Below, in pieces: positions 1,135-25,388 of a stretch of 64,000 nucleotides of DNA. The DNA is from an uncultured Mycoplasma sp. (GTDB lineage: Bacteria; Bacillota_I; Bacilli_A; RF39; UBA660): assembly GCA_947642635.1 (NCBI GenBank), contig CANRTI010000004.1, positions 5,467 to 69,466 on the forward strand. The letters run 5' to 3'. Each line of letters opens with the position of its first letter. Positions within the stretch are counted from its first letter, which is position 1. The notes beneath the pieces were generated by a model. It was not told where the DNA came from, ran no database searches, and saw nothing but the letters and a program-made list of their open reading frames with translations. Position numbers and translations under genes: made by a program.

Positions 1135-1174
1135 AATTTCACCTACAACTAATAATAGTATATCAAAATAATGT

Positions 1175-1693: not shown

Positions 1694-2271
1694 TTATGGC
1701 CTCTTTTCCGAATAAAGTAATCTAAGGTAATACCTGCAATTGATGAGCAAGCGGTTGCAATTATAGCAGGAACAATGATTTCCCCTGGAGCACTAGAATT
1801 ATAAGCTACTCGAAGAGCTAATATTGTCGTTGGTATTAATGTCACACCAGCAGTATTTAAAATTAAAAATGTAATCATCGGAGTGGTAGCAGTATCTTTT
1901 TGAGGATTAATTTTTTGAAGTTCATTCATTGCTTTTAATCCAGCAGGAGTAGCAGCACTACCTAATCCAAGCATATTAGCAGCAATATTCGAAGAAATAT
2001 ATCCTAATGCCTTATTATTTTTAGGAACATCGGGAAATAATTTGGATAATAATGGATGTAAAAGAGTAGAAAATTTGTCTAATAAACCACTTAGTTCAGC
2101 AATTTTTAAAATTCCTGTCCAAAGAACGATTACGGGTAGTAAACTTAATATTAAATCTAAAGCTTCTGTAGCATTATTTAAAATACTTTCATTAATAACA
2201 TTAATATTGCCACTTAACAAAGAATAAAATATTCCAATTCCAATTAAAAATGCCCAAATATATCCTACCAT
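1684..2271 (-). CDS. spmA: spore maturation protein A
   Basis: Membrane protein with SpmA-like sequence. It overlaps dacB upstream and spmB downstream. Confidence 0.75.
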   Translation of the reverse strand: MVGYIWAFLIGIGIFYSLLSGNINVINESILNNATEALDLILSLLPVIVLWTGILKIAELSGLLDKFSTLLHPLLSKLFPDVPKNNKALGYISSNIAANMLGLGSAATPAGLKAMNELQKINPQKDTATTPMITFLILNTAGVTLIPTTILALRVAYNSSAPGEIIVPAIIATACSSIAGITLDYFIRKRGHKWR

Positions 2272-3341: not shown

Positions 3342-3416
3342 GTAGTCACCTATCAAAGTATATGTTTTAATTGAATAAAAAATGTTGATAACATCTCTAT
3401 TATCAACATATGGTAC

Positions 3417-4610: not shown

Positions 4611-4639
4611 AATTAAGTCCTCTTTCTTATTTTTACTTA

Positions 4640-4666
4640 ATTATAAGATACCCCCCCCGGTTGCAA
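4640..4666 (-). promoter_or_regulatory. candidate sigma-A promoter of paralog 1 with G8 homopolymer in the -35/-10 spacer
   Basis: On the coding strand: TTGCAA, then CC+GGGGGGGG+TATCT (15 nt), then TATAAT, then the AGAGGA RBS and ATG at 4610. Confidence 0.4.
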
Positions 4667-4740
4667 GTTTTATTGTTTTTTTATCCGAATTTTTGTTAAA
4701 AAAAATATAGATAATTTTGATATCTATATTTTCTTTTAAA

Positions 4741-5202
4741 TTAATTAGTAGCTTTTTTAGTTTTTGTAGTTGTTGTTTTAGTTTTTTTAACTTCTTTTGG
4801 AGTATTATCTTCTAACTTAGCTGCGGTATTTTTCAACAATTCTGCGGTTTTAGTTTTAACTTTTTTAGCAGTTTTTTCAACAATTGGTGTTCCTTTTTGA
4901 ATTGCTAAATCAACTAATTCTTGAGCTTTAATTTTAATTTCTTTAGATTTGTCTATAATTAATTGTTTTGCAGTTTCTTTGTCTAAATCTTTAATAGTAT
5001 TTTGTAATTCTCTTGATTTTACAATAATAGCATTTTTAACTTCTACTAAATCAATTTCTTTAGCTTTTTCAATCAATTCTTCAATAGCTTTTCCTAAATC
5101 TTCTCTTGTTTCTTTGCCACTTTTAGGAGCAAATAATAATCCTAGTCCTAATCCAATTCCTGCTCCTAATAAGAAATGCCCTTTTTTACTCATTTTCTTC
5201 AC
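4741..5202 (-). CDS. YtxH-like general stress protein (DUF948 family, Gly-zipper N-terminus)
   Basis: GAGIGLGLGLLFAPKSGKETREDL N-terminus with a K/E-rich coiled tail. Adjacent to a ytxG-like gene. Confidence 0.55.
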   Translation of the reverse strand: MKKMSKKGHFLLGAGIGLGLGLLFAPKSGKETREDLGKAIEELIEKAKEIDLVEVKNAIIVKSRELQNTIKDLDKETAKQLIIDKSKEIKIKAQELVDLAIQKGTPIVEKTAKKVKTKTAELLKNTAAKLEDNTPKEVKKTKTTTTKTKKATN

Positions 5203-5482
5203 TCTCCATATCTTCTTTCTTATCTTTATAAAATAATTTTAACACAAAACTTTCAATAGTGCCAATAACTGATGCAATGACATTATTTACTTTATCCGAA
5301 ATTAAGCCAAAAGTATCAAATAATGGTTTTATTCTTTCAACTTTTTCATTAACGCTATCAATAAAAGCATTAACTTTATCAATAGTAATTATAAGCTTAA
5401 TTCCTAAAACTATTCCTACCACTATTATTATTATCAATAAAAAGTAAATTATAATTGGTAATAATTGTAACAAAAATTCCAT
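5186..5482 (-). CDS. DUF948/YtxG-like membrane protein
   Basis: Single N-terminal TM followed by a coiled segment, in the ytxG-ytxH operon context. Confidence 0.5.
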   Translation of the reverse strand: MEFLLQLLPIIIYFLLIIIIVVGIVLGIKLIITIDKVNAFIDSVNEKVERIKPLFDTFGLISDKVNNVIASVIGTIESFVLKLFYKDKKEDMESEENE

Positions 5483-5486
5483 TTAA

Positions 5487-6356
5487 CTAGTCCTCCTCTC
5501 TTTCATCATACATCGAATCAATTAATTCAAATAAATCACTATCTAATGTATCATCTAAATCTTTATCTTCATTAGAACGATTAAAATCAATTTTTTCTAA
5601 TTCTTCTTCAATAGCATCTAAATTGTTAGCTTTAGGAATTTCCAAAGTATCTTCTAATTCAATAGTATCAGATGCATCTTCTAAAAGCGAATCAATCGAA
5701 CGATAATCTTCTTTATTGCTAGAAGAAGTAACACTATCTTTTTCTTCAAAAAATGTAACAACAGGATCATCGATAGTTTCAATTGTATCAATAGAGTCGA
5801 TTACATCATTTTTATTTAAATAGCTATAATCAGGTTTTGGTTCTTCTTTTTTCTCAAAAGCTTTCTTTCTTACTTCTTCTATATTAATAGTAGATGCATA
5901 ATCTTTTTTACTAATAATTTCGTCCGCCTTATAATCTTGATTTAAAATGCCATATACCGGTGAAATTATTGGAGATGGTCGAAATTTTTTCTTATCAACA
6001 TATTCTTTATTTTCAACTCGGTCTAAACGACTATGATTATCAGCTCTTTTTTCACTAATTTTTTTTCTTTCATAATCTAAAACATTGGCTTTTGGTTTAT
6101 TTGCATTTAAATTTGTAATAAATTCATCTTCATCAAATTCCGGAAAATTAAAACTATTCTCTGGCTTAAACAAATCTCTTTCACTAGGAACTTCTCTAGT
6201 AATTGGAGCAGGCATATTCTCCACTTTAGGGGTAGATTCTATTTTAACAATCTTTGGTTCATCAACTTTTTCTTCACGAACCTTAATTTGTTCTGTATAC
6301 TCTTCCTCTTCAAATAATATATCTTTTAATTTTTTGACAAAACTCATAGGAATCAC
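5487..6356 (-). CDS. highly acidic (D/E-rich) hypothetical protein
   Basis: Long ORF with consistent codon usage. Low-complexity acidic composition. Confidence 0.4.
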   Translation of the reverse strand: MIPMSFVKKLKDILFEEEEYTEQIKVREEKVDEPKIVKIESTPKVENMPAPITREVPSERDLFKPENSFNFPEFDEDEFITNLNANKPKANVLDYERKKISEKRADNHSRLDRVENKEYVDKKKFRPSPIISPVYGILNQDYKADEIISKKDYASTINIEEVRKKAFEKKEEPKPDYSYLNKNDVIDSIDTIETIDDPVVTFFEEKDSVTSSSNKEDYRSIDSLLEDASDTIELEDTLEIPKANNLDAIEEELEKIDFNRSNEDKDLDDTLDSDLFELIDSMYDEREED

Positions 6357-6360
6357 CTTT

Positions 6361-7011
6361 CTAATTTATAAAGTCACTATCAATTATTTTATCCGAATCA
6401 TTTGTACTTCCTTCTTCTACATCGCCATAATCTAGCACATTAGAATTATTTTTCTTCTTTTCAAAAATATTAAATGATTCTTCAGTATAATTTAAATCAT
6501 CATCATTAAGCAAATTCTCAATAACTTTATCATTATATTTTATACTATTTAAAATACTAATGGAATTAATTAGAGCTTCATTGATAAAACTCTTTTCTAC
6601 CATTACTTCTATTTTAGCATAATTATACATAATTTCAATCAAATATTTGTTATTTTCTTGTAAAATTACCTCAATATACCCTTGTTTATCTGCATGAGCA
6701 ATTTTTTTGGAATAACTAGCATCTTGGTTAATTTTATAATTTATTGTATTTTTCTTTAAATAACTTACCATATCAATATATAAATAATAATTAATTTTTT
6801 CACTGGCAAATATAATGTAATTTGTTCCTGCTTCATCTATTTTTAAAGATTTTGGAACATAAAAAGAAAAACCTTTTCTATGAGAATTAACTTGTTTGGC
6901 ATCAATACTAAAACCAGTAAGTATTTCTTCATAACTTAAGTTTTCAATATTTACACAACCACATAGCATTGTAATGATTAATCCAATTAATAATAGTTTT
7001 TTTGTTTTCAT
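6361..7011 (-). CDS. putative lipoprotein
   Basis: Signal peptide with a lipobox-like LCGC sequence. Confidence 0.5.
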   Translation of the reverse strand: MKTKKLLLIGLIITMLCGCVNIENLSYEEILTGFSIDAKQVNSHRKGFSFYVPKSLKIDEAGTNYIIFASEKINYYLYIDMVSYLKKNTINYKINQDASYSKKIAHADKQGYIEVILQENNKYLIEIMYNYAKIEVMVEKSFINEALINSISILNSIKYNDKVIENLLNDDDLNYTEESFNIFEKKKNNSNVLDYGDVEEGSTNDSDKIIDSDFIN

Positions 7012-7037
7012 ATTTACTCCATAATTATTATAACAAT

Positions 7038-7640
7038 TTATTTAATTGCTTTCAAATATTTTATTTTGATTCCCTCTTTACTAAAACGCTCTTCATACTC
7101 TGTAGTAATATTTTCTATATTTGTACTATGTAAATCATAAATAAGAGAAGTTATTTCATATCCATAATCTTTTAAACTTTCTAAACTATAATTAAATAAA
7201 TCTAAATTATCAGTTTTTTGAATTATTTCACATTTATTAATAAATAACTTATCATATAATTTTAAAAATTCTTTAGATGTAAGACGCCTTTTAGCATGGC
7301 GTTTTTTTGGCCATGGATCAGAAAAATTCAAATAAATTACTGATACTTTCTTAGCTAATAATTCTTCTAAATTTTGAATATCACTAATAATAACTTTTAA
7401 ATTCGGTAGCTCAAAATCCCGAATTTTTTTAATGGCTATACTTCCAACACTTGAATATTTTTCAATTCCAATAAAATTAATTTCCGGGTGATTAAGCGCC
7501 ATATTTAAAATAAATTGACCCTTTCCCATACCTATTTCAATATGTAATTGTTGTTCTTTAACAAAATTAATTGTATCAGTTATTAAAAATTCACAATTAT
7601 TAATTACTTCTTCTTTATCTTTTGGATTACGCATACGCAT
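7038..7640 (-). CDS. trmB: tRNA (guanine46-N7)-methyltransferase
   Basis: MRMR N-terminus as in Bacillus TrmB. SAM-binding IGMGKG motif and LNFSDPWPKKRHAKRRL motif. Confidence 0.85.
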   Translation of the reverse strand: MRMRNPKDKEEVINNCEFLITDTINFVKEQQLHIEIGMGKGQFILNMALNHPEINFIGIEKYSSVGSIAIKKIRDFELPNLKVIISDIQNLEELLAKKVSVIYLNFSDPWPKKRHAKRRLTSKEFLKLYDKLFINKCEIIQKTDNLDLFNYSLESLKDYGYEITSLIYDLHSTNIENITTEYEERFSKEGIKIKYLKAIK

Positions 7641-7689
7641 AAAAAATCACATCCCAACTTTTAACATATAATGTTGATAGGAGGTATTT

Positions 7690-7992
7690 ATGAAAAAATC
7701 TAGAAATTCATTTTTTTCTGAAAGTAACTTTCAAGCATACAATCCTAACATGAACATGCAACCAAATAATGGTGGAGCCCCTTTCCAAACAGCAAGTAAC
7801 TATTTTTATCAAGGACCCATGCCTAATAATTATAACACAATGCCTAGTGGAAGTGATATAGAAAGTCGCTTAGCTAAAATAGAAAGACAAATTAATCGGA
7901 TTGAGTATCGCTTAAAAAATATTGAAAATTCAACTAATATTATTACTTCAGAAGATTTTGAAAATAATACAACTAATATGTATATGCTCTAA
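7690..7992 (+). CDS. hypothetical N/Q/P-rich protein with C-terminal coiled coil
   Basis: ORF with an RBS (taggaggt). Composition is disordered. Confidence 0.4.
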   Translation: MKKSRNSFFSESNFQAYNPNMNMQPNNGGAPFQTASNYFYQGPMPNNYNTMPSGSDIESRLAKIERQINRIEYRLKNIENSTNIITSEDFENNTTNMYML

Positions 7993-8014
7993 ACTTGGGT
8001 TTTCCTGGGTTTTT

Positions 8015-8182
8015 TTAATGATAGATTACTACTGCACTAAAACAATATATTTGCTCTTCCCCATTAATAGCGAGTGCTACTTGATATTTTATATCGATAA
8101 CATCTATATCGTTACTTAAAAAGCTATTGATACTTTCTTCTAAATCTTTTTCATTTTCTTCATCAAAAACTTTAACTTTCAT
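8015..8182 (-). CDS. cse60: sporulation protein Cse60 family (55 aa)
   Basis: Translates to MKVKVFDEENEKDLEESINSFLSNDIDVIDIKYQVALAINGEEQIYCFSAVVIYH, which closely matches Bacillus Cse60 (YteV). Too short to appear in the ORF track. Confidence 0.65.
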   Translation of the reverse strand: MKVKVFDEENEKDLEESINSFLSNDIDVIDIKYQVALAINGEEQIYCFSAVVIYH

Positions 8183-8333
8183 TATCTATTCACCTATTAT
8201 TACTATACATTATTGAAAGAGATTTTTTTGTCAAAAAAACAGCGATTTCAATTTTTTAGTATTATATTTAAAAAAATGTAAAAAAACTGTTAATTTTGAG
8301 GAATTATGCTATAATTTTAAGAGGTGATGCGAG

Positions 8334-9950
8334 ATGAAAGATAAAATTTTGATTTTTGGGCATAAAAATCCCGATACAGATAGCGTTTGTAGTGCAATTA
8401 GCTTATCATATTTAAAAAATACTTTAGGATATAATACAGAACCTAGGATTTTATCAGGGATTAATGATGAAACTAAATTTGTTTTAAATCGTTTTGGTTT
8501 CAAGATACCGGAAATTTTAACAGATGTAAAGTTAAAAATTAGTGATGTAAATTATCACAAAGATTTTAATATTAGTATTAAAGAATCAGTTTATAATTCT
8601 TTTTTCGAAATGCAAAAAGCTAATATGAGTACAATTCCTTTAATAGATGAAAATGGAACATTTATGGGAGCTTTTGCTATGAAAGATATAGCTAAAAGAG
8701 AAATTTTAGAAGATAATAAAACTTTAAAAGCAACTTTTAGACATATTTTAGAAACTATCAATGGAGAAGAAATTCTAAAGTTTGATGACAAAATAAATGG
8801 AAATATTTTAAATATTGCGATAAGAAGTACAACTTTTAATACTAAGCATGATTTTAATAAAGATACTATTTTAATTGTAGGTGATCGACATGCTATAATT
8901 GAAGAAGCTCTTAAAAAAGGAATTAAACTTTTAATTATAACGAGTGATCATGAATTAAAAAATGAACATTTAGAACTTGCTAAAGAAAATAAAGTTAATG
9001 TTATTTATACAAGATTAGATTCATATGATACATTAATGAAAATTGGTTTTGCTAATACAATTGAAAATTATCGCTATACAAAAGATTTAGTATGCGTAAC
9101 TGATGAAACTGATGTAACTGAATTAAATGAAATTATTAATAAGACTAAGCATAGTTATTATCCAGTAATTGATAAAAATAATAAATGTTTAGGTTTAATT
9201 AAATTAGCAGATTTAAATGATTTTAAACCTAAAAAAGTTATACTAGTAGATCATAATCAAAAAGTTCAAAGTGCTGAGGGACTAGAAGAAGCTGAATTAG
9301 TAGAAATAGTTGATCATCATAATTTAGGAATTATTGGAACTAGTCAACCAATTAATGTTCGGAATATGACTGTAGGGAGTACTTGTACAATACTTTATGG
9401 TTTATTTGAAGAATATAATGTTGAAATTCCTCAAAATATAGCGGCATTACTTTTAAGTGGAATTATCTCTGATACCCTTCTTTTAAAAAGTCCAACTGCT
9501 ACAGAAACTGATAAAAAAGTATTAGATGAATTAATTAAAATAACTGGTTTAAATGCTGAAGAATATGCTATTGAAATGTTTAAAGCTAATGATTCAATTC
9601 CTAGTAAAACTATTAGTGAAGTATTAAATATTGATTGTAAGAAATATCAAGCTAATGAAAAAGAAATCGTTATCAATCAAGTAACAACTTTAAATTCAGA
9701 TGCTATCTTAGATAAACAAGCAGATTATATAAATTATTTAAATGAAGAATGTGCAAATAAAAATTATGAAGTTTTTGTATGTGTAATTACTGATATCTTT
9801 AAAAATGGTTCATATATTATTTTTAATGAAAATGCTTTAAATATTGTTCAAACTGCTTTTGGTGAAAATGTTCAAGAAGGAGATTTTATTCCAGAATTAG
9901 TTTCTCGAAAAAAACAAATTTTGCCACCTTTGATGGAAGCAATAAAATAA
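8334..9950 (+). CDS. ppaC: manganese-dependent inorganic pyrophosphatase, family II with CBS-domain insertion (CBS-PPase)
   Basis: DHH motifs (HKNPDTDS, DHNQ, DHH), a DHHA2 C-terminus and inserted CBS pair. Confidence 0.85.
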   Translation: MKDKILIFGHKNPDTDSVCSAISLSYLKNTLGYNTEPRILSGINDETKFVLNRFGFKIPEILTDVKLKISDVNYHKDFNISIKESVYNSFFEMQKANMSTIPLIDENGTFMGAFAMKDIAKREILEDNKTLKATFRHILETINGEEILKFDDKINGNILNIAIRSTTFNTKHDFNKDTILIVGDRHAIIEEALKKGIKLLIITSDHELKNEHLELAKENKVNVIYTRLDSYDTLMKIGFANTIENYRYTKDLVCVTDETDVTELNEIINKTKHSYYPVIDKNNKCLGLIKLADLNDFKPKKVILVDHNQKVQSAEGLEEAELVEIVDHHNLGIIGTSQPINVRNMTVGSTCTILYGLFEEYNVEIPQNIAALLLSGIISDTLLLKSPTATETDKKVLDELIKITGLNAEEYAIEMFKANDSIPSKTISEVLNIDCKKYQANEKEIVINQVTTLNSDAILDKQADYINYLNEECANKNYEVFVCVITDIFKNGSYIIFNENALNIVQTAFGENVQEGDFIPELVSRKKQILPPLMEAIK

Positions 9951-14331: not shown

Positions 14332-14406
14332 GCAGGTGTAGTATAATGGTTAATATATAACCTTGCCAAGGTTGAGATGGGAGTTCGATTCTCCTCACTT
14401 GCTCCA
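14332..14406 (+). tRNA. tRNA-Gly (anticodon GCC)
   Basis: Acceptor stem gcaggtg/cacttgc with a G-U pair. Anticodon loop ttGCCaa. T-arm gggagTTCGATTctcc. CCA is encoded. Confidence 0.75.
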
Positions 14407-14495
14407 TTTGAAAACAACTTACGGACTGTAAAATGTTCGTGAGTTTTTATTTTATATAAAAGGCTTTAGTTCTCTTTCTAGGAAGGAGGACTTTT

Positions 14496-14783
14496 TTGAT
14501 GTTGGAATTTAAAATTATTGAAGAATTAAAACCAAATACTGAAATCTTGGAGATGATTAAAGACTGCACATACAAAGTTAAGAAAGGAGCAATAAAACAT
14601 ATTCTGCATACTAATTTACAAGTTATAGAGCCTACTGAATACTTAATTACATATCCTGCTACTCTTACACTTTTAGAATATAAAGTTAATGAAATATCTA
14701 ATAAGCCATTTTATATTAAAGAACATAATCAAAAATATAATCTCAAAGAAATTATCCAAATTTTAAAGAAAATTAAAATTTAG
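14496..14783 (+). CDS. hypothetical protein (mobile-element associated)
   Basis: ORF between the tRNA and the recombinase. Confidence 0.35.
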   Translation: MMLEFKIIEELKPNTEILEMIKDCTYKVKKGAIKHILHTNLQVIEPTEYLITYPATLTLLEYKVNEISNKPFYIKEHNQKYNLKEIIQILKKIKI

Positions 14784-14901
14784 ACTTCACTTTTTCCGTT
14801 TTAGTGAGGAAACATATGGGAGGACATTTTTACAAATTTTTAAGTTTATTGTTTGCTATTTTGTCTTTCAGTGAGGAAACAAGTGAGGAGATGATTATTT
14901 T

Positions 14902-16221
14902 ATGAGATGTGCAGTATATGTAAGAGTTAGTACAGACGACCAAAGAGATAATGGTTATTCTATTGATTCACAACTTCGTATGATTAAAGAATATTGTGAG
15001 AAAAACGATTATAGTATTGTTGATGTTTATAATGATGCAGGTCATTCTGGAAAAGATTTAATGCGACCAGAAATGCAAAGATTACTTGCAGATATTAAAT
15101 CTAAAAAGATTGATAAGTTAATTGCTATTAAAGTAGATAGACTTACAAGAAACAACTATGATGGATTTTGGCTTTTAAATTACTGTGAGGAACACGATGT
15201 TAAAATAGAACTTATTTTAGAGCCTTATGATGTATCTACTGCTAATGGTGAAATGATATTCGGTATGAATTTAGTATTTGGTCAAAGAGAAAGAAAAGAA
15301 ATTGGAGCAAGAACAAAAAGGGCAATGGAAGAAATGGCTTTAGAGCATATTCACCCTAGTAAAGCACCTTACGGGTATGTAAGAAATAAAGATACAGGAC
15401 ATTTAGAAATAGAGCCTATTGAAGCCCAAGTCGTTAAAGAAATATTTAAACTTTGCCAAGAGGGAAACTCTACTAGAAGCATTGCTACGATTATGGAAGA
15501 CGACAATGCTTATTTAAAAAATGGGAAGTGGAGAGCCGATAGAGTTTATAAAATACTAACTAATTCTATCTATATTGGTATATTTGAATACGGAAAATAT
15601 AAGAGAAAACAACAAGATATCTTAAGAGTAAAAGACTATTGTGAGCCAATTATAGATGAAACAACTTGGAATGCTACTAGAAATGTATCAGTGAAAAATA
15701 AACATTCAAACTATGGAGAGTTTATTCATTTATTTTCAGGATTAGTAAAATGTCCAATATGCGGTAGTATTATGGCTTCATCTGAATCTTTTAAATATCC
15801 AAATGGAAAACAAAAAGTTTATTACCATTTAAGATGTAAAAACCATAATTGTAGTGGATATGGACTTCATTACAATACCGAGAAAATAGAAGTTAAATTA
15901 AGAAGAGTATTAGAAGAATTAACTATCTTTATGATGGGAACAAATAATGAAATTATCACTTGTAATTCTACAAAAAGTAATGATGTAAAAGAAATAGAAA
16001 AAGCCATTGAAAAATTAAAGTTACAGGAAAAAAGACTAGTTGATTTATATTTAAGTTCGACCCTAGATGTTGAAACAATTAACCATAAAAATGATGTTAT
16101 AAAAAAAGAGATTGATAAACTAAACAAAAAGAAAACTACTCTTGATCCAAATAACGAATCAAAAGAATATACAACAGAACTACTAAAAAAATTAGACTGT
16201 AAAAAGGAAAATGACAAGTAA
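14902..16221 (+). CDS. large serine recombinase (resolvase/invertase N-domain + recombinase + zinc-ribbon + coiled coil), TnpX-like
   Basis: N-terminal AVYVRVSTDDQ with the catalytic Ser. C-terminal CPICG...C..H..C zinc ribbon and coiled coil. Placed adjacent to a tRNA gene. Confidence 0.85.
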   Translation: MRCAVYVRVSTDDQRDNGYSIDSQLRMIKEYCEKNDYSIVDVYNDAGHSGKDLMRPEMQRLLADIKSKKIDKLIAIKVDRLTRNNYDGFWLLNYCEEHDVKIELILEPYDVSTANGEMIFGMNLVFGQRERKEIGARTKRAMEEMALEHIHPSKAPYGYVRNKDTGHLEIEPIEAQVVKEIFKLCQEGNSTRSIATIMEDDNAYLKNGKWRADRVYKILTNSIYIGIFEYGKYKRKQQDILRVKDYCEPIIDETTWNATRNVSVKNKHSNYGEFIHLFSGLVKCPICGSIMASSESFKYPNGKQKVYYHLRCKNHNCSGYGLHYNTEKIEVKLRRVLEELTIFMMGTNNEIITCNSTKSNDVKEIEKAIEKLKLQEKRLVDLYLSSTLDVETINHKNDVIKKEIDKLNKKKTTLDPNNESKEYTTELLKKLDCKKENDK

Positions 16222-16393
16222 TGAATATTCGAGTGAATTTGTAGATGATTTTTTTGCTAAAGCCCATAGTCATTTTTATGTAGATGGTATAATTGGCAGT
16301 CCTTATTTTGAGGGAAATGTTTCTAAAGATTTTCTATTATTAGTACCCAAAAAAGAAGTAGTCAAAGCAACCTAAATGTGAAAGGAGTTAGCA

Positions 16394-16636
16394 ATGAAAC
16401 AATTAACAAAAGAAAATATTTTAAAGAATCAAGTAGATACCATAGAACAATTTAAAGTTCTTGATTATCTAAAAAAGCAATTATCTATTCTTGAATTTAA
16501 TTTATATTTAATAGATAGATTTACTATTAAAGTTGTAGATAAAAACAAAAAACAAGGTTATTTTAAATACAATTCTAAAACAAAATCAGTGGATTTTTGC
16601 GAGAGAAATATTAAAAACAAAGAAATGGAGAGATAA
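16394..16636 (+). CDS. hypothetical small protein
   Basis: ORF only. Confidence 0.3.
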   Translation: MKQLTKENILKNQVDTIEQFKVLDYLKKQLSILEFNLYLIDRFTIKVVDKNKKQGYFKYNSKTKSVDFCERNIKNKEMER

Positions 16637-16639
16637 AAA

Positions 16640-16993
16640 ATGGAATTAAATTATATAAAAGTTGGTGATTATTTATTACCAAACTTAACAATAGAAAAAC
16701 AAAATAATGAAAAGATTAACAAGTATGGCTATTTAAGATTACACTATCTGAAAGAAAATAATAAGCCACTTTATACAACTCTTTTAATGAAAAATGAACT
16801 AACAAATCATCTTGTTTCAGTTAGTATTGAAGCAGAAAATAGATTAAATATTTTAATGGAACAATGCAAAAATTCTGATAAATTACTATCTGAAAAAAAT
16901 AAAATGGATAACCAACTTCAATGGGTAAAACTAATGAATAATTATAAAAATATAGCAGAAGAAGTTATCTTAAAGGAACTAATTTATGTATGA
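16640..16993 (+). CDS. TnpV-like transposon protein
   Basis: YIKVGDYLLPNLT N-terminus and QWVKLMNN...AEEVILKELIY C-terminus. From memory this resembles TnpV of Tn4451-type serine-recombinase elements. Confidence 0.45.
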   Translation: MELNYIKVGDYLLPNLTIEKQNNEKINKYGYLRLHYLKENNKPLYTTLLMKNELTNHLVSVSIEAENRLNILMEQCKNSDKLLSEKNKMDNQLQWVKLMNNYKNIAEEVILKELIYV

Positions 16994-17007
16994 AAATAGG
17001 ACTGCAA

Positions 17008-17035
17008 ACCCAGCAGTCCTTTAAAATTACCGTAA
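17008..17035 (+). terminator. terminator hairpin after TnpV-like gene
   Basis: AGGACTGC/GCAGTCCT stem with a 7-nt loop, followed by TTtaaaatt. Confidence 0.4.
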
Positions 17036-17134
17036 GTACAAGTTTGTGCTTTTGTCCTAGCCAGCACTGAAAACCTACTCCCGCACGTTTTCAATTTATG
17101 GGAAATCCCATACCCTTGTTAATACTGAAAAAAA

Positions 17135-18238
17135 TTATTTTCTCAAATCTATAATGTCACAGTTTCTTTCTCCAGTCCCAATTATTGTTACAGGTATATT
17201 AGTTATTCTTTCTATTTTTTTAATAAAATCTTTTACTTTCGTTGGTAAATCATCATAATTGCTACATCTATATGCTTTCCAATCTATGTATTGAGCAAAA
17301 TTTAAAACAATTTGAGTTGGCTGATTTATCATTACATTATATTTTAATCTATCCCAATTCATTTCGAAAACACGTCTTACTTTTTTTGTTACAGTTGTAT
17401 ATTCTTCTAAATCAATATTACATCCACATCTATCTTTTATCTCATTCCAGGTGATTTCAGCGCTACCTGCATAATCGCCACTATAAATGGCTTCTCCAAT
17501 GTTAGTTTTATTACTTATTCTAATAGGATATGGTCTTATTATCATATAAATATCTTTTACTTTAAAAGGATTTAATCCAGCATCTGCAATAAGTTGACTT
17601 GCACTACACATTCTACTTGTAACAAAAGGATAATCTAGACCATAGTTTATATCCAAGTCTTGGCCCTGAGCACCTTCAATTAAAATATTATCATCACACT
17701 CATTTATAATTTTTGCAGTATCAGTTATTTCAATAATAGTTATTAAATCATCTGGAAGATTTTTAAAATAATCTTTTGCTAAAATAATGCTAGGATTTCT
17801 AATAATTTTTTCAGCTTGAGCTACTCCACATCCCTTAAATGTTGAACCACTCTTTATTATTTTTTTTTCTTCTTCGCGATGTTTATCTAAAATGATCATT
17901 GCCCTTGGATGAATATAAATTTTTCTATTTCCAATAAGTTTCTTATATTTTCTGATTTCATCAAATAATATTTCTGGAGTAATAACACACCCAGCATTTA
18001 GTACTAATTTGCAATTTGGAGCTAATATTGCCATAGGCAAATGACTAACTATAATTTTCTCTCCATTATCTTCTACATAAGTATGACCAGCATTACTTGA
18101 ACAACTGTTTGTAGATAATAAAAAGTGTTCTTTTTTAACTAAGTAACCACAAATTTTTCCTTTCCCACAACTTCCTGCTTGACCATCTATTACTACTGTT
18201 ACATTTTTATTATTCAAGAAAAAGCCTCCTTTATTCAT
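17135..18238 (-). CDS. adenylosuccinate synthetase-like protein (truncated, PurA/PurZ-like; P-loop GSCGKGK)
   Basis: Alignment to PurA: GSCGKGKI vs [22 protein letters not shown] vs [34 protein letters not shown] vs [29 protein letters not shown] vs TTGRRRR. It is 367 aa against ~430 for PurA. Confidence 0.75.
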   Translation of the reverse strand: [367 protein letters not shown]

Positions 18239-18665
18239 AAAATTTTTTTATATTTTCCAAATCTAATATTTCTTTAACAAACTGGTTTAAATTTGATAAT
18301 CCTGCTATCTCTTTATTATATATATCCATAACAAAATCAATAGTTTTCCACTCATAATAACCCTCCTCGTTATCAACAACTTCTACTTCTTGAACAAAGT
18401 CATATATAACATGTAAATGTGTATTACTATTCATAATATTTGATTCTGGATAAACATATGTTACCAGAAGTTTAGGATTTTCTAAACTAATACTCGTTTC
18501 TTCCATACATTCTCTTTTAGCAGCTTCAATAGGAGTTTCATTTCCTTCAATTTTCCCACCAATTCCATTCCAACAATTTTTATAAGGTTTTTTATTTCTT
18601 TTCACTAATAACAATTTGTCCTTATCTTTGTTAAACAATATAATTACTACATAATTTTTATTCAT
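18231..18665 (-). CDS. NUDIX hydrolase
   Basis: Nudix box GGKIEGNETPIEAAKRECMEETS. Overlaps the PurA-like gene. Confidence 0.75.
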   Translation of the reverse strand: MNKNYVVIILFNKDKDKLLLVKRNKKPYKNCWNGIGGKIEGNETPIEAAKRECMEETSISLENPKLLVTYVYPESNIMNSNTHLHVIYDFVQEVEVVDNEEGYYEWKTIDFVMDIYNKEIAGLSNLNQFVKEILDLENIKKFYE

Positions 18666-18857
18666 ATGAAACCTCCAAAATAATCATCAATCTTATGATA
18701 ATTTTACTACAAATAGATTTTTTTTGCTATACTCCCATTGAAATTTAATCGTAATTCATATATAATATTTGTAGAAAGAGAACAAAGTTCGTAACTTGTA
18801 TGCGACTCGCTCCATTGACGAATCTGTTCGAACTTATCGGACATTAATATAAAGAAA

Positions 18858-19676
18858 TCAATCGAAAGATTGGTTTTTTTGAGTGTGTAAAAATTTTAAT
18901 TTTCTATTATCAAACATTGACTTCCCATATTTTCTATATACTTCATCAGCAGTACATGAAATTGCATCTTTCATTGAATAGCCCAATTTATTCAGTATAT
19001 TTTCTAGGTCAGATTCAGATTTACCTTCTACTTCAACATATGTTGGTATTCCTAGCCATGTATCTATATCTAATTCATATTCATCTAAAATATATGTAAT
19101 TCTTTCCTTTTCTTGGTAACTTTTGTAAATATACCCTAATGCTTCAAGCAAATTATTTGCCTCTTTAATATTAGGAACTTCAATTTCAGTTTCCAACATT
19201 TGTTGAAGATTAGTTTCATTATCAGCTAAAATATGCTTAACTGCAAAAGTAGTTTTATCATTTGTTTGTCTAACTCTTATCCATTTTTTTGAATTATTAT
19301 GAAATTTATTTATAAAATCTATCAATTTGTTATTATCTAAATAATCGAGCAAATTATCTTTTAAACATAAGCAAGATACATTAACATCACCAACAATTTC
19401 ATTTAGTTCTTTTTTATTTTCTTCTGTTAATAAATTATCTAATTCAAAAAACAATAATTTTAATTTTTCAAGTGCTGTTTCATATTTGATTTCACTTTCA
19501 TTATCTTTTAATTGGGTTTTAATATCAACAAATCTACCATATATAGTAGGTAAATCATAGGTATATAAAAATTGTTTAGTTTTCTTTTTTAATGTTGCAC
19601 CTAATGATTTAATTTTAGTTATAAATTCATCTTTATTAATATCTAGTATTTTAACTTCTAATTCAATTTTTTTCAT
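18858..19676 (-). CDS. CYTH-domain (triphosphate tunnel metalloenzyme / class IV adenylate cyclase-like) protein
   Basis: N-terminal IELEVKI (ExExK) motif. Additional WIRVRQ, ETEIEV and YVEVEG motifs are consistent with a CYTH tunnel. Confidence 0.5.
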   Translation of the reverse strand: MKKIELEVKILDINKDEFITKIKSLGATLKKKTKQFLYTYDLPTIYGRFVDIKTQLKDNESEIKYETALEKLKLLFFELDNLLTEENKKELNEIVGDVNVSCLCLKDNLLDYLDNNKLIDFINKFHNNSKKWIRVRQTNDKTTFAVKHILADNETNLQQMLETEIEVPNIKEANNLLEALGYIYKSYQEKERITYILDEYELDIDTWLGIPTYVEVEGKSESDLENILNKLGYSMKDAISCTADEVYRKYGKSMFDNRKLKFLHTQKNQSFD

Positions 19677-20142
19677 TTTCTAGATCTCCTTCAAACTTAT
19701 TTATTTCAACGCCTGCTTCTTTTAATAAACATTCTGAATATTTATCCGGATATGCTTTTAAATAAATGATCTTTTTTATTCCCACATTTATAAGCATTTT
19801 AGCACATATTATACACGGCTGTTTCGTTACATATAAAACACTATCTTTAACATCTATTTTATTATTTAAAGCATCTATTAGAGCATTTTGTTCCGCATGG
19901 ACAACAAAACATAATTCTTGATTTTCTCCACTTTTTAAATTTAGTTTTTTTCTTATACAAGTTTTTTCAGTACATGGAGTTATTCCATTAGGAACACTAT
20001 TAACTCCTTCTGCAATTATCTTATTATCTTTTACTAAAACAGCACCAACTTTACCTTTAATACAATTAGCACTAGCAGATATTTTAATTGCGTAATTCAT
20101 AAAAAGATTATTGTTTTTAATTTTTACATTCATATAAATCAC
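19663..20142 (-). CDS. dCMP/cytidine deaminase family protein (ComEB-like)
   Basis: Zinc-binding HAEQNAL and PCxxCAKML motifs. Overlaps the CYTH gene. Confidence 0.75.
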   Translation of the reverse strand: MIYMNVKIKNNNLFMNYAIKISASANCIKGKVGAVLVKDNKIIAEGVNSVPNGITPCTEKTCIRKKLNLKSGENQELCFVVHAEQNALIDALNNKIDVKDSVLYVTKQPCIICAKMLINVGIKKIIYLKAYPDKYSECLLKEAGVEINKFEGDLENEKN

Positions 20143-20416
20143 CCATAAAAATTAACACTTACATGAACATTATACCATGAAATTTTATCTTAATTATATA
20201 TATTATAAGATTTTTGTACTAAAAAAGTAGTAGAAATTGATTATTTTATATATCAAATCGTTATGAGTGAAAAAGTTGTAGATACTATGCTATTTGCTTC
20301 ATTTGAAAACGAAATAGTTTCAAATAATTGAAAAAGAATGTATAATAAAAATATATTCTTAAATCTGTAAGGAGTCATTTTTTTAATAAATTTAATGAAT
20401 TATACAAAAGAAAAAG

Positions 20417-20869
20417 GTGTTAAAAATGGTATTAATATTTGGAATAAGTGGAACAATAATTGGAATAATTTCTTTAATTTTTTCTCATTATGGGAAAAAA
20501 AGCTATATAGAAAAGAAAAAAAGATGTACTAGCAGTGTTGAAGGAAAAATAATTAGATTTGAAATTAGAAAATATAGAAATTATGATGATTATGACATAG
20601 TTTATTATCCTGTTTATGAATATTTTGTTAATCAAAAGAGATGCGAATTAATGGGAAGTAATGGGTTATCAGTTTATTATGGTGAAAAAAAAGAAGAAAA
20701 AATTGATTCCTTAATTGGTAAAACTAAAAATATTTTTTATAATCCTCTAAATTGTAATGAAAGTTATATTAGTAACGAAAATATTAATATTGTTTACAAT
20801 ATTGCCAAAATTTTAGGAATAGTACTTTTAATAATAGGACTAATTAATTTGTTGATATATTTAATTTAA
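20417..20869 (+). CDS. DUF3592-like membrane protein
   Basis: N- and C-terminal TM segments with a beta-rich middle region. Confidence 0.4.
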   Translation: MLKMVLIFGISGTIIGIISLIFSHYGKKSYIEKKKRCTSSVEGKIIRFEIRKYRNYDDYDIVYYPVYEYFVNQKRCELMGSNGLSVYYGEKKEEKIDSLIGKTKNIFYNPLNCNESYISNENINIVYNIAKILGIVLLIIGLINLLIYLI

Positions 20870-21055: not shown

Positions 21056-21604
21056 TTAAATTCGAAATAGATATGAACTTAATTCATCATAACATTCATC
21101 TCTATTTACAATTAGATTATTTTCACGCATTTCATTTAATTCATTTATGGTAACAAATTTAATAGCTTGAACTTCACTACTTTGAAATTTGATATTTGTA
21201 TCTGTTAAGCCATTTTGTCTAAGAATAAAGAAATCATAAAATTGTCTATCATAGTGATCATCATTTACTTTTTTCTCTTTTCGATAAGAAAACATAAACC
21301 GAAAATCTCTTACTTCAACACTATACCCCAAACTTACACTTACTTCTTCGCTAATCTCACGAGTTGCAGCAGTTAAAGAATCTTGGCCAGCAGATAAATG
21401 ACCAGTTACAGAAATATCCCACATATCTGGATTTTTATCTTTGTCATGACTTCTTTGTTGTATTAAAATTTCATTTTTTTCATTTACAATTGCTACTACA
21501 ATAATTCTGTGCCAAAGTCCTTGTCTGTGTACTTCTTTTCTCGGCAAAACTTCTCCTGTTTTGATACCATTTTCATTTAAAACATCTAAAAGTTCTTCTT
21601 TCAT
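21056..21604 (-). CDS. NUDIX hydrolase (second copy)
   Basis: Nudix box GHLSAGQDSLTAATREISEEV. Confidence 0.7.
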   Translation of the reverse strand: MKEELLDVLNENGIKTGEVLPRKEVHRQGLWHRIIVVAIVNEKNEILIQQRSHDKDKNPDMWDISVTGHLSAGQDSLTAATREISEEVSVSLGYSVEVRDFRFMFSYRKEKKVNDDHYDRQFYDFFILRQNGLTDTNIKFQSSEVQAIKFVTINELNEMRENNLIVNRDECYDELSSYLFRI

Positions 21605-22325: not shown

Positions 22326-22373
22326 TAGTACATAAAAATAGAAATAAATTTAATACTAATAATGGTGGTAAAT

Positions 22374-23117
22374 ATGCCTAATATCCATAGTAGTATTAAT
22401 TTTGGCTTAGTTAATATTCCTGTTTTAATGAATCCTATTATTAAAAATAATGATACATCTTTTAATCAATTACATGAAAAATGTAAAACTAGAATAAACT
22501 ATGTTAAATATTGTCCGAAGTGTAAAATTAAAATTAATGAGAAAGATATTATTAAAGGTTATCAATATGAACAAGATAAATATATTGTTTTTAGTAAAAA
22601 TGAATTAGATAATTTAAAACCTGAAAATGAAAAAGAAATTGATATTATCGCATTTGTACCTTTAAAAGATATTGATCCTATTTATTTTGAAAAAAGTTAT
22701 GATATTGATGCAGAAGGTAAAGGAAAAGCTTACTTTTTATTTTGCGAAGCTTTGAAAAGAACTAAACTAGTGGCATTAGCTAAAACAGTAATTGGTAGCA
22801 AATTTTATTATTGTATTTTAAGATTTAATGGGGACAACATAATTATGACTACTTTATATTTTGAAGAAGAAATTAATGAAAAAAAAGATAATAGTAATTA
22901 TAAAATTAACGAAAAAGAAATTAAATTAGCTACTGAATTAATAACGTCTTTAAAAGGAAAATTTGAGCCGCAAAAATACATTGATGAATATCAAGATAAT
23001 TTAAAACAAGCAATTGAAAATAAAATTGAAGGAAAAAGTGTTAAGAGTACTAAAAAGAAAAATAAAAAACAAATTACTGATTTAATGACTGCTTTAGAAA
23101 AGAGTTTAAAAAAATGA
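22374..23117 (+). CDS. ku: Ku protein (NHEJ)
   Basis: SINFGLVNIPV N-terminus and the Ku core. The ORF track starts 4 codons upstream. Confidence 0.8.
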   Translation: MPNIHSSINFGLVNIPVLMNPIIKNNDTSFNQLHEKCKTRINYVKYCPKCKIKINEKDIIKGYQYEQDKYIVFSKNELDNLKPENEKEIDIIAFVPLKDIDPIYFEKSYDIDAEGKGKAYFLFCEALKRTKLVALAKTVIGSKFYYCILRFNGDNIIMTTLYFEEEINEKKDNSNYKINEKEIKLATELITSLKGKFEPQKYIDEYQDNLKQAIENKIEGKSVKSTKKKNKKQITDLMTALEKSLKK

Positions 23118-23995
23118 GTATTTGGACGAATAGAAATTGGACTCCTATGTTATTACAAGAAATTCCTAAACCTTTTAATTCTAAAGATTATTTATATGAA
23201 TTAAAGTTTGATGGAATAAGAGCTGTTATTTTTGTAAATAAAAAAGAAATAAAAATCCAAAGTCGTAATCAACAAAATTTAACTAATCTATTTCCCGAAC
23301 TACAAGAGATTAAGAAACAAGTGACAAAAAATGTCATTTTTGATGGAGAAATTATTGCATTACAAAATGGATTACCATCATTTAGGAATATTCAAAAGAG
23401 ATTACATTTAAAAAATTCTACTAAAATATTAAATGCAAGTAGAGATAATCCCGTAGTATTTATGGCTTTTGATATTCTTTATGAAAACAAAGAATTAATT
23501 AATAATAATTTAATTATTAGGAAACAATATTTGCAAAAATATGCTGATAGTGATTGTTTTATTAAAACTAAGGCCCAAGAAAATAATGGTTGTGAATTAT
23601 TTCGAAAAGTTAAAAAGTTAGGTTTAGAAGGAATTGTTGCCAAAAACAAAAATAGTACTTATCATATTGATAAAAGAACTGATGACTTTATTAAAATAAA
23701 AAATATAAAGCGTGATGAATTTGTTATTGGAGGATATGAGTTAAAGAAAAATGAACAAATATCTTTGGCACTTGGAGAAATGCATAATAAAAAATTAGTA
23801 TTTGTAGGAAAAGTAACTATTAGAAAAACTAATAAAATTTATTCTAAAATATTGCAAGCCAAACCTAGTGAAAATTATTTTACAGATTTTAATGAGAATA
23901 TAACTTATATTAAACCTACTCTAACTTGTCATGTCGAATATTTAGAAAGAACTATTAATAATCATTTAAGACATCCAATATATAAAGATATTTAG
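23114..23995 (+). CDS. ATP-dependent DNA ligase (LigD ligase domain only)
   Basis: KxDGxR adenylation motif (ELKFDGIRAV). Overlaps the ku stop codon. Confidence 0.75.
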   Translation: MSIWTNRNWTPMLLQEIPKPFNSKDYLYELKFDGIRAVIFVNKKEIKIQSRNQQNLTNLFPELQEIKKQVTKNVIFDGEIIALQNGLPSFRNIQKRLHLKNSTKILNASRDNPVVFMAFDILYENKELINNNLIIRKQYLQKYADSDCFIKTKAQENNGCELFRKVKKLGLEGIVAKNKNSTYHIDKRTDDFIKIKNIKRDEFVIGGYELKKNEQISLALGEMHNKKLVFVGKVTIRKTNKIYSKILQAKPSENYFTDFNENITYIKPTLTCHVEYLERTINNHLRHPIYKDI

Positions 23996-24005
23996 AAGGG
24001 ATTAT

Positions 24006-25388
24006 ATGAAAAAACTAGAAAAATATAATAGTAAACGAAACTTTAAGAAAACTAAAGAACCACAGGGAATAATAAAACCAAAGAAAAACAAAATGTTAAA
24101 ATATGTGATACAACATCATCTAGCTAGAAAAGATCATTATGATTTACGTTTAGAATATAATGGAGTTTTTATAAGTTTTGCTGTTCCAAAAGGTCCCTCA
24201 TTTAATCCTAAAGATAAAAGATTAGCGATTAAAGTTGAAGATCATCCAATAAGCTATGGTAATTTTGAAGGGGTAATTCCTACTGGGGAATATGGAGCTG
24301 GGATAGTAATGATTTTCGATAAAGGATACTGGAAACCACTAAAAGATACTGTTCCAGATTTTGATAATGGTCCAGTAAAATTTACGATTAAAGGAAAAAG
24401 ATTGCAAGGTAATTGGTCGTTAGTTAAATTAAAAGATTCTAATTGGTTATTAATTAAAGAAAAAGATGAATTTGCTAATAATAATGATATAAAAAAATAT
24501 CAAACTAGTATTAAAACTAATCGAACTATGGATGAGATTAAAAATAATGTTAAAAAATCTAGTTTTAGTGAGTTAACTAGTCCTGATAAAATAATTTTTC
24601 CTAAAGATAAAATTACTAAAAAAGAAATTTACGATTATTATCAATTAGTTAGTAAAAGAATGCTACCATTTTTGGATAATCGATTGATAAGTACAGTAAG
24701 GTGTCCTAATGGAATAGAAAAAGAAATATTTTTTATGAAACATTTAAATAATCCTAGTAAAAATTTAGGACAGAAAAAAATTCGAAATAAACAAGATGAA
24801 AAAACTAATTATTATTATATTAAAAATGATGTTGGCTTATTAGAAGAAGTACAAATGAATAGTTATGAATTTCATATTTGGGGGTCTTTACAAAATTATT
24901 ACAAAAAACCCGATATGATTGTTTTTGATTTAGATCCTGATGAAAGATTATCTTTAAAAAAAGTAAGAGATGGAGTTAGAGATTTAAAAAGTATCTTAGA
25001 TAATTTACATTTAATTTCTTATCTTAAAACTAGTGGTGGAAAAGGTTATCATATTTATGTTCCAATTAATTTACCTTCATTTAAAAGAGGTGAAAAAATT
25101 GCTGAAGATATTGCTAACTTAATGACTTTAAATTGGCCCGATAAATATACAACAAATATTCGTAAAGATAAAAGACAAAATAAAATATTTATTGATTATT
25201 ATCGAAATAAATTAGGAGCTACAAGTGTTTGTCCTTATTCTTTAAGATTAAAAGATAAAGCAACAGTATCTTGTCCTATTTTTTGGCATGAATTAGATAA
25301 AATTAAACCCCAAAGTATAACTATTAAAAATATAAAAGAACGTTTAAAGAAAAAAGATCCTTGGGCTGATTTTTTCAATCATTCGTAA
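24006..25388 (+). CDS. LigD 3'-phosphoesterase + polymerase/primase domains (no ligase domain)
   Basis: PE-domain HHLARKDHYDLRLE motif at the N-terminus. Pol domain motif GGKGYHIYVP at the C-terminus. Confidence 0.75.
   Translation: MKKLEKYNSKRNFKKTKEPQGIIKPKKNKMLKYVIQHHLARKDHYDLRLEYNGVFISFAVPKGPSFNPKDKRLAIKVEDHPISYGNFEGVIPTGEYGAGIVMIFDKGYWKPLKDTVPDFDNGPVKFTIKGKRLQGNWSLVKLKDSNWLLIKEKDEFANNNDIKKYQTSIKTNRTMDEIKNNVKKSSFSELTSPDKIIFPKDKITKKEIYDYYQLVSKRMLPFLDNRLISTVRCPNGIEKEIFFMKHLNNPSKNLGQKKIRNKQDEKTNYYYIKNDVGLLEEVQMNSYEFHIWGSLQNYYKKPDMIVFDLDPDERLSLKKVRDGVRDLKSILDNLHLISYLKTSGGKGYHIYVPINLPSFKRGEKIAEDIANLMTLNWPDKYTTNIRKDKRQNKIFIDYYRNKLGATSVCPYSLRLKDKATVSCPIFWHELDKIKPQSITIKNIKERLKKKDPWADFFNHS

Follow-up and report, generated by a model that had tools for sequence, protein, structure and literature searches.

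A 64-kb stretch of low-G+C (26%) Bacillota DNA, which at its full length we call the window, carries on its minus strand four closely packed open reading frames (ORFs) for a dCMP deaminase, a CYTH triphosphate-tunnel protein, a Nudix hydrolase, and a PurA-like protein. An earlier note on this DNA had read the four as a single operon carried by a serine-recombinase element. Our comparisons very strongly favor a different arrangement, in which two unrelated gene pairs were juxtaposed by the insertion of a 4,408-bp integrative element, E1, at the 3' end of a tRNA-Gly gene, their common orientation being fortuitous. E1 carries the PurA-like and Nudix genes as cargo. The CYTH and deaminase genes lie outside it and appear to be resident nucleotide-housekeeping genes with no tie to the PurA-like gene. 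By its motifs and tree position, the PurA-like protein belongs to the Ser-type radiation that includes the phage 2-aminoadenine (Z) synthesis enzyme PurZ, rather than to adenylosuccinate synthetase proper, and its Nudix neighbor is strongly suggested to be a further, non-homologous solution for the role of dGTP pyrophosphatase, played in phages by MazZ.

Insertion of E1 and the two gene pairs

The four ORFs, E1, and the sites that delimit it are as follows (+ and -, strand); all four domain assignments exceed their Pfam cut-offs, as the earlier note had read them.

14332-14406, +: tRNA-Gly(GCC), called by ARAGORN (Rfam tRNA, 62.8 bits); its 3' end is the integration site
14407-18814, no strand: integrative element E1, 4,408 bp, of a serine-recombinase/TnpV family
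16998-17020, -: terminator-like hairpin directly 3' of the stop codon of the PurZ-like gene
17135-18238, -: PurA-like (PurZ-like, Ser-type) protein, 367 amino acids (aa), Pfam PF00709; E1 cargo
18231-18665, -: MutT-type Nudix hydrolase, 144 aa, Pfam NUDIX 59.7 bits; E1 cargo
18666-18814, -: right end of the element, forming the cargo leader; conserved in the window and in loci L001 to L006 and L010
18815-18890, +: native tRNA-Gly-downstream DNA with a terminator hairpin, homologous to the DNA 3' of the tRNA-Gly in locus L061
18858-19676, -: CYTH/triphosphate-tunnel protein, 272 aa, Pfam CYTH 28.9 bits; outside E1
19663-20142, -: dCMP deaminase (ComEB-like, single domain), 159 aa, Pfam PF00383 85 bits; outside E1
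20294-20310, +: a 17-mer resembling the tRNA 3' end, TTGCTTCATTTGAAAAC, matching 14399-14415 at 16 of 17 positions

The PurA-like and Nudix genes overlap by 8 nucleotides (nt) and the CYTH and deaminase genes by 14 nt, and a gap of 192 nt between Nudix and CYTH divides the two pairs. It is within this gap that E1 ends. The insertion point is precisely the 3' end of the tRNA-Gly(GCC) gene: at the left junction of the element the window reads CACTTGCTCCA on the tRNA side and TTTGAAAACAACTTACGG on the element side, at its right junction GCGACTCGCTCCA (18809-18814) on the element side and TTGACGAATCTG beyond (also written TTGACGAATCTGTTCGAACTTATCGGA), and the core GCTCCATT is common to both ends. 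A relative, L061, retains the unoccupied site, in which CACTTGCTCCA runs straight into TAATGAAATCTGCTCGAACTTTTCGAG, in agreement with the window DNA to the right of 18814. L061 and the window match over LtaS and the tRNA up to 14407, and the match resumes at 18890 and continues through CYTH and the deaminase. This empty site and the intact element copy in L100 together fix the ends of E1 at 14407 and 18814.

Other copies of the element agree with this placement. Conservation among all of them sets in precisely at the right end (at TGGAGCG; the window's right end is GCTCCA, 18809-18814), and homologous ends are found in L002, L095, and L100. L001 to L003, from three species, are 98 to 99% identical to the window in DNA over the stretch that runs from TnpV across the cargo genes, and the identity of these loci and L100 to the window (96 to 99%) ends at 18814-18893, inside the gap. 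On the far side of the junction stands a hairpin homologous to the tRNA terminator of L061. Between E1 and the stop codon of CYTH are 44 nt, all of them native tRNA-downstream DNA. The same tRNA-Gly adjoins LtaS in L061, L063, and L002. When the window is compared with L002, identity is 98% for E1 but only 55% for LtaS, a disparity that indicates recent horizontal transfer of the element.

The right end of E1 probably carries both a recombination half-site and a promoter facing inward, toward the cargo. A riboswitch or other regulatory RNA in the leader of the Nudix gene (~150 nt) was considered and rejected, as an Rfam search of the leader returned no RNA family and the leader is conserved only among copies that share the same element end; its lack of conservation at other PurZ-like loci identifies it as element end.

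The CYTH and deaminase genes have a history of their own. In L061 and L063, whose CYTH proteins are 88% identical to that of the window, the gene order is deaminase-CYTH-NDK-p267-p79-tRNA-Gly(GCC)-LtaS, and the overlapping deaminase-CYTH pair followed by NDK recurs in L055 and L061 to L065 with no PurZ-like gene nearby. Because relatives without the element have the pair in one syntenic block with NDK, tRNA-Gly, and LtaS, we regard both genes as native. The NDK-p267-p79 genes are missing next to the pair and from the rest of the 64 kb, and comparison with these relatives indicates that NDK and the two further genes were deleted from the window lineage. The window CYTH protein has 272 aa against 262 in its relatives, the 10 extra codons (LHTQKNQSFD) being antisense to the former tRNA terminator. 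It has the ExExK motif (ELEVK, residues 4-8), its Pfam match (cut-off 23.2 bits) covers the C-terminal half only, and its match in the PDB is the triphosphate-tunnel protein Saci_0718 (E 3e-5). Its 463 homologues at 70 to 99% identity occupy ordinary chromosomal settings, one source being named Candidatus Aphodocola. The deaminase resembles the ComEB/dCMP-deaminase type, with a single domain. Against the anti-phage dCTP deaminase model NF041025 it scores 79.6 bits, short of the equivalog cut-off of 400; this model, like the PADLOC dCTPase system, requires a kinase-like N-terminal domain as well as the deaminase; the window protein matches profile positions 322-402 only, which is the deaminase domain.

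A single cargo operon, in which CYTH would replace the phage dATPase DatZ in removing dATP and the deaminase would tune pyrimidine pools, whether for a complete non-homologous Z pathway or for defense, is thus very hard to sustain. The genes do share a strand and tight spacing, all four proteins act on nucleotides, and no strong terminator is predicted in the Nudix-CYTH gap, the hairpin at 16998-17020 being the sole terminator-like site predicted within 16900-20500; moreover, one could take the 17-mer at 20294 for an outer att site around all four. However, E1 has its right end in the Nudix-CYTH gap, what adjoins it toward CYTH is native tRNA-downstream DNA, and the four-gene synteny is found at no other locus: CYTH or deaminase homologues occur at none of 54 PurA-like loci (other species; PurA-like proteins 69 to 99% identical), and the PurA-like or Nudix gene occurs at none of 11 loci found through CYTH homologues. 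Counted over all loci, the two pairs occur together at 0 of 60 and 0 of 11. The intact element in L100 carries Nudix and the PurZ-like gene as its only cargo. The 17-mer was rejected as the outer att site of E1, since a similar remnant is present in L055, which lacks E1, and the true right end is at 18814; the 17-mer is an older remnant. What the earlier note had said of a recombinase element beside tRNA-Gly with nucleotide-enzyme cargo was borne out, as was part of its Z-pathway proposal, which gains for two of the four proteins, PurA-like and Nudix, but not for CYTH as a replacement for DatZ, CYTH being a native gene outside E1 that is not co-inherited with the PurZ-like gene. Likewise, of the outcome that it had set against its own reading, one half was found, in that CYTH and the deaminase are conserved housekeeping-type neighbors with no link to mobile DNA; the other half was not, the PurA-like gene being no canonical purA.

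The remnant in L055 (9373-9389), also similar to a tRNA-Gly 3' end, has the same position and orientation as the 17-mer in the window, ~150 nt upstream of the dCMP deaminase gene. This hints that the deaminase-CYTH(-NDK) block was once itself bounded by tRNA-end repeats.

The PurZ-like protein and its Nudix partner

The PurA-like protein matches solved structures of both PurA and PurZ (E 1e-38 to 1e-44), and it is similar in length to P. horikoshii PurA (PDB 5K7X/2D7U; NF003295), with which it aligns from end to end, including the C-terminal helix region. Where that enzyme has Asp13, GRRRR, and TMLD, however, the window protein has Ser, KKVRR, and NFAQ, along with a 15-residue insertion. The P-loop reads QAGSCGKG, with Ser at the position of PurA Asp13, as in 117 of 120 bacterial homologues and 123 of the 127 nearest near-full-length cluster representatives; a published survey gives Asp13 as conserved in 99% of PurA and Ser as present in 100% of 147 phage PurZ and PurZ0 proteins (PMC12884076). 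The aspartate loop is identical to that of phiVC8 PurZ, where PurA proteins have GATTGRRRRTG or GTVTGRRRRVG, and the positions of PurA R303-R305 read K-V-R. The insertion follows PIR(I), where the insertion of PurZ pushes a Val against C2' and where PurA has TRVGAGPFPTE. The donor motif LNFAQY replaces LTKLD, which puts F and Q in the K331 and D333 columns, in parallel with F306 and Q308 of S-2L PurZ, which contact the base of ATP. Residues S23, T273, and Q308 (S-2L numbering), the aspartate-loop tip T273-T276, and the loop insertion are PurZ specific (PMC8342488). The window protein thus shares with the PurZ proteins of phiVC8, S-2L, and Acinetobacter phage SH-Ab 15497, to which it is 31 to 37% identical, Ser13, the phiVC8 aspartate loop, an insertion after PIR(V/I), and an F-x-Q/N donor-base motif.

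The tree topology points the same way. An exhaustive homologue search returned 4,506 matches, 467 of them at E <= 1e-30, and in a neighbor-joining tree of 143 sequences, distance based and without support values, the window family is sister to phage proteins from IMG/VR (50 to 54% identity) inside the Ser-type radiation. PurZ0 and a family of plasmid proteins, both of which have Asp333, are more basal, and the PurA proteins of P. horikoshii and E. coli fall outside. PurZ0, from Arthrobacter, Gordonia, and Microbacterium phages with DutZ or DmtZ, has the Ser-type P-loop and TTVT aspartate loop in common with the window protein, but the two are only 25 to 29% identical, PurZ0 keeps the GTP-type Asp333 (TMLD or SFAD) where the window protein has F/Q, and its helper enzymes are different. 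It is Ser13, the aspartate loop, the loop insertion, the F/Q donor motif, and the tree position that lead us to assign the window protein to the PurZ side of the PurA-PurZ divide.

All 175 phage-database matches belong to lineages already known to have Z genomes; the top match, at 41.5% identity, is a Bacillus phage protein. This closest relative from a cultured phage is encoded by vB_BpsS-140 (L080, 8950-10071), in which the gene is annotated purA although its product is of the Ser type (QVGSEGKG, LNFANY); the genome of that phage may contain Z. The nearest IMG/VR viral contigs have genes for ThyX, a PD-(D/E)XK nuclease, and a helicase beside the PurZ-like gene, and tblastn found no homologues of phiVC8 DatZ, PolA, or Nudix1 (the window's Nudix partner) in them.

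Clustering of all ORFs in the 54 loci showed that only two families recur, the PurA-like proteins and the Nudix proteins. A Nudix gene is adjacent to the PurA-like gene in 27 of the 54, and fusions of Nudix to the PurZ-like protein account for ~30 of the 120 top homologues. In the window, Nudix stands immediately upstream of the PurZ-like gene, and the two, overlapping by 8 nt, are translationally coupled. The Nudix box of Nudix1, GKIEGNETPIEAAKRECMEETSI, differs from the consensus GX5EX7REUXEEXGU only in its final G, which is S, and the best PDB matches of Nudix1 are MutT, NUDT18, MTH1, and NudB, all of them (d)NTP pyrophosphohydrolases. The fused domain of protein P0030 is Nudix1-like, while that of P0090 is a homologue of MTH1 (E 3e-35), 35% identical to Nudix1 over the Nudix box. 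Two Nudix lineages have therefore joined the PurZ-like protein, and the association arose at least twice.

Z-phages encode a dGTP pyrophosphatase immediately upstream of PurZ, and it comes in differing folds, MazZ, DUF550, and DutZ (PMC12884076, PMC8342488). The window pair has its putative pyrophosphatase gene in the same place, but the partner is a Nudix protein of the MutT/MTH1 type, not MazG, DUF550, or Dut, and its fold is not homologous to MazZ. Nor does the pair include DatZ or DpoZ, and it is found in bacterial chromosomes and a small recombinase element rather than in a phage. Relative to MutT and MTH1 (NUDT1), with which it shares an intact Nudix box and its closest structural-sequence matches, Nudix1 is distinguished by being a dedicated partner of a PurZ-like enzyme. 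The suggestion of the earlier note that Nudix is a non-homologous stand-in for the phage pyrophosphatase is strengthened by these data, the gene being adjacent or fused in most loci.

Variations on the pair were also seen. In L089 (7556-7954), from a very abundant gut lineage (P0058, present in 59 collection blocks), the Nudix gene upstream of the PurZ-like gene is split into ORFs of 75 and 50 aa, and the partner may be dispensable in that lineage. Among P0021, P0078, L012, and L014, some PurZ-like proteins carry an N-terminal GNAT acetyltransferase domain in place of Nudix, with additional GNAT genes upstream.

The element family and the distribution of its cargo

The genes of E1 other than its cargo all lie on the plus strand, as follows.

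14496-14783, +: orf95, small element ORF with homologues in other element copies and no Pfam match
14902-16221, +: large serine recombinase with Resolvase, Recombinase, and Zn_ribbon_recom domains; 439 aa, truncated
16211-16375, +: orf54, the stranded C terminus of the recombinase; in L003 and the 596-aa homologues it forms one continuous ORF with the rest of that protein
16394-16636, +: orf80, conserved small element ORF, present in L002, L095, and L100
16640-16993, +: TnpV, Pfam PF14198 (E 8e-31)

Full-length homologues of the recombinase, 88 to 96% identical and several hundred clusters in number, have 595 to 596 aa. Compared with L003, the window gene has a deletion of ~315 nt, flanked by two AAAATGACAA repeats, that shifts the reading frame, and because the recombinase is truncated in this way (439 against 596 aa) the window copy of E1 is probably immobile. 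The same probably holds for L002, where most of the recombinase is deleted. In L100 the element is intact and has the same gene set, namely recombinase, small ORF, TnpV, PurA-like gene, and Nudix. The L100 element (326-8688; recombinase of 596 aa) is directly followed by a second large serine recombinase of 642 aa and a Mob_Pre relaxase, which suggests that tandem or nested elements are present.

Loci L095 (6326-12859) to L099 have the same backbone after a tRNA-Gly(TCC), with ends homologous to those of E1 (left 89%, right 86%), but a different load: the cargo comprises a NikA-like protein, a HAD hydrolase, and a 734-aa protein with both an APH/RIO1-like kinase and a His_biosynth part. The element family is a very common type in gut Bacillota, and its cargo varies in a slot flanked by TnpV on one side and the conserved right end on the other. 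The segment at 18701-18814 of the window and the right end of the differently loaded L095 element share 86% identity, and the cargo of both is transcribed inward from that end. Since this segment is conserved in an element with other cargo and the same direction of transcription, the comparison suggests that the E1 cargo has a promoter of its own and that the Nudix/PurA-like pair need not rely on read-through from CYTH.

Tn4451 and Tn4453 are clostridial mobilizable transposons with the TnpX large serine recombinase, TnpV, and cargo. We take E1 to be of a similar type, since it too is small, has TnpV after a large serine recombinase, and offers a slot for cargo. It differs from them in being site specific for tRNA-Gly 3' ends, in that the window copy lacks a Mob/TnpZ gene, and in carrying nucleotide enzymes instead of catP; its recombinase, whose best NCBIfam match is CcrB (152 bits), is only distantly related to theirs.

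The PurZ-like family extends far beyond this element. It has more than 1,000 homologues at 70 to 99% identity, is common in gut Bacillota chromosomes, and keeps its catalytic motifs intact. E1-type elements with the PurZ-like gene are present in the window and in L001 to L006, L010, and L100. At some loci the neighbors include ORF6N/Rha-type genes, serine recombinases, GNAT genes, or a Ser/Thr kinase, and others are set among housekeeping genes: the PurZ-like gene follows IreB-RuvX-DUF1292 in L086 and lies between an AMP-binding enzyme and PGI/pyruvate kinase in L089. The sole purB in 1.1 Mb of related metagenome-assembled DNA, 47% identical to E. coli PurB, is in L030 (4147-5502), 4.5 kb from the PurZ-like gene with four genes of mixed orientation in between, and this proximity is probably coincidence.

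A search of plasmids found no close PurZ-like homologue, only a kinase-fused Ser-type family at ~30% identity. This second bacterial Ser-type family, seen on proteobacterial plasmids, namely Rhizobium sp. Kim5 pRetKim5a (L092, 4449-6741) and a B. thailandensis plasmid (L093, 4431-6774), consists of 537- to 571-aa fusions in which a PurA-like domain (QFGSEGKG, LTFADY) is joined to an AAA_18 kinase-like one, always with a DUF7002 gene after them, in island-like contexts with a RelA/SpoT protein, a DDE transposase, or an integrase. It shares Ser13 and the accessory setting with the window protein but keeps Asp333 and has other partners. PADLOC has no model for it, and the literature searched does not mention DUF7002.

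Between the deaminase gene and a further gene cluster, the window encodes a DUF3592 membrane protein (20417-20869) and a second, unrelated Nudix protein (21056-21604, -). The cluster itself (22362-25388) consists of a Ku gene followed by two LigD-type ORFs, one for an ATP-dependent ligase and one for a protein with a polymerase/primase-type domain, and it resembles a non-homologous end-joining cluster.

A candidate pathway and its alternatives

We propose that the MutT-type Nudix protein would produce a monophosphate by hydrolysis of a purine (deoxy)nucleoside triphosphate, dGTP or GTP being the likeliest substrate, and that the PurZ-like enzyme would join that (d)GMP to aspartate, taking its phosphate from ATP or dATP and not from GTP, to form N6-succino-2-amino-(deoxy)adenylate. 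Host PurB and kinases would then take the succino product on to (d)Z nucleotides. The pair would amount to the MazZ-PurZ step of phages in a two-gene form that relies on Nudix, acquired from gut phages and at present residing in bacterial chromosomes and mobile elements. We hold the structural side of this explanation, an E1 insertion that set two modules side by side, with high confidence, and the biochemical side, by analogy with the phage enzymes, with moderate confidence; taken together they form what we consider the best account of the locus, and a reasonably probable one. As for purpose, we lean, speculatively, toward a role in phage-host or element-host conflict, through diversion of dGTP or production of dZTP, because the pair is mobile cargo of apparent phage origin.

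A number of observations weigh against this account. The protein scores only 210 bits against the PurZ model NF038379, below its cut-off of 300, and the archaeal PurA model NF003295 slightly outscores it. The window protein keeps ~50 PurA-like residues at its C terminus, which phiVC8 PurZ lacks, and the tree that places it among phage proteins has, as stated above, no support values. PurZ chemistry is predicted for the family from sequence comparison, and (d)GTP is proposed as the Nudix substrate from family resemblance. In many genomes the neighbors of the gene are housekeeping genes and nothing around it is mobile or phage-like, which fits an ordinary metabolic role too. Constitutive dZTP synthesis is toxic in E. 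coli (PMC8342488). No DatZ (HD domain) is encoded in E1, and no homologues of phiVC8 DatZ or PolA were found in the related loci searched; without a DatZ-type dATPase or a Z-specific polymerase, complete replacement of A by Z is unlikely. Finally, no Asp-type purA was found in the window or in the 1.1 Mb of related DNA, a sample drawn from ~70 genomes and far too small to show absence.

That last observation leaves room for the Ser-type enzyme to be a working adenylosuccinate synthetase serving the IMP-to-AMP branch in reduced gut Bacillota, possibly as their only one, with Nudix supplying IMP or dIMP from ITP or dITP, or being an unrelated house-cleaning partner, and with the element spreading a salvage gene. 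This is the main rival to the PurZ-type account, and the best NCBIfam match of the protein, NF003295 at 233.6 bits, speaks for it, as do the full-length alignment with the P. horikoshii enzyme, the stable chromosomal residence in L086 and L089, and, together with the absence of an Asp-type purA from the sampled DNA, the purB gene of L030. We nevertheless judge it unlikely. The nearly invariant Asp13 is gone, the GTP-specifying K331/D333 pair has become F/Q, and the sequence is nested among phage PurZ-type proteins and falls below every PurA equivalog cut-off (368 bits for NF003295; 171.3 against 395.55 for TIGR00184; 135.7 against 402 for NF002223), and presence/absence polymorphism and recent horizontal transfer also count against this reading. 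An account with similar biochemistry but a specifically anti-phage purpose, in which infection would prompt the pair to drain dGTP and/or to build up dZTP, or some other aberrant purine nucleotide, to levels that poison phage replication, strikes us as about equally doubtful. Its attractions are the mobile-element cargo, the variable accessory contexts with ORF6N/Rha-type genes, serine recombinases, or a Ser/Thr kinase, the existence of a second Ser-type family with a kinase-like fusion and a DUF7002 partner in plasmid islands, and a weak match of Nudix to the PADLOC candidate family PDC-S07. The defense or counter-defense role raised in the earlier note we regard as no more than conceivable: beyond that weak match, PADLOC has no model matching the PurA-like protein or CYTH and matches the deaminase to the dCTPase deaminase domain only, no sensor or regulator is evident, many copies occupy plain housekeeping neighborhoods, and we found no supporting literature. 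Still less credible, to our minds, is that a Z-genome prophage is decaying here and that the pair is what is left of it, without present function. Outside bacteria the closest relatives are indeed phage proteins, the E1 recombinase is broken in the window, and Nudix is fragmented in L089, but more than 1,000 homologues have all their catalytic motifs intact, independent Nudix and GNAT fusions have been maintained, no phage structural genes lie nearby, and identical cargo has been kept in several species.

The synthesis of 2-aminoadenine has so far been treated as the preserve of phages, and homology to PurZ is used to predict viruses with Z genomes. Natural dZ-DNA has been reported exclusively in phages to date (PMC13128860, from 2026). 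The literature that we searched ties PurZ to phages and four archaeal sequences only; it contains no link between PurZ and Nudix and no bacterial chromosomal PurZ family, and the combination of a PurZ-like protein with Nudix is described nowhere in it outside phages. A bolder form of the account given here, which we offer as a tentative possibility, is that many gut Bacillota and small tRNA-Gly-targeting elements have domesticated a phage-derived PurZ together with a Nudix dGTP pyrophosphatase, and that these cells make Z nucleotides, for their own or the element's DNA or as a weapon against phages. If true, it would be the first cellular, non-viral Z-nucleotide pathway.

The locus also illustrates how the insertion of an element can mimic an operon. 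For the PurZ-like family itself, the consequences depend on its chemistry. If its members make Z nucleotides, bacteria may carry or weaponize a non-canonical base, and the prediction of Z-genome viruses from PurZ homology would need a caveat; if they are instead adenylosuccinate synthetases that dispense with the conserved Asp, the view of what is essential in PurA catalysis would have to be revised.

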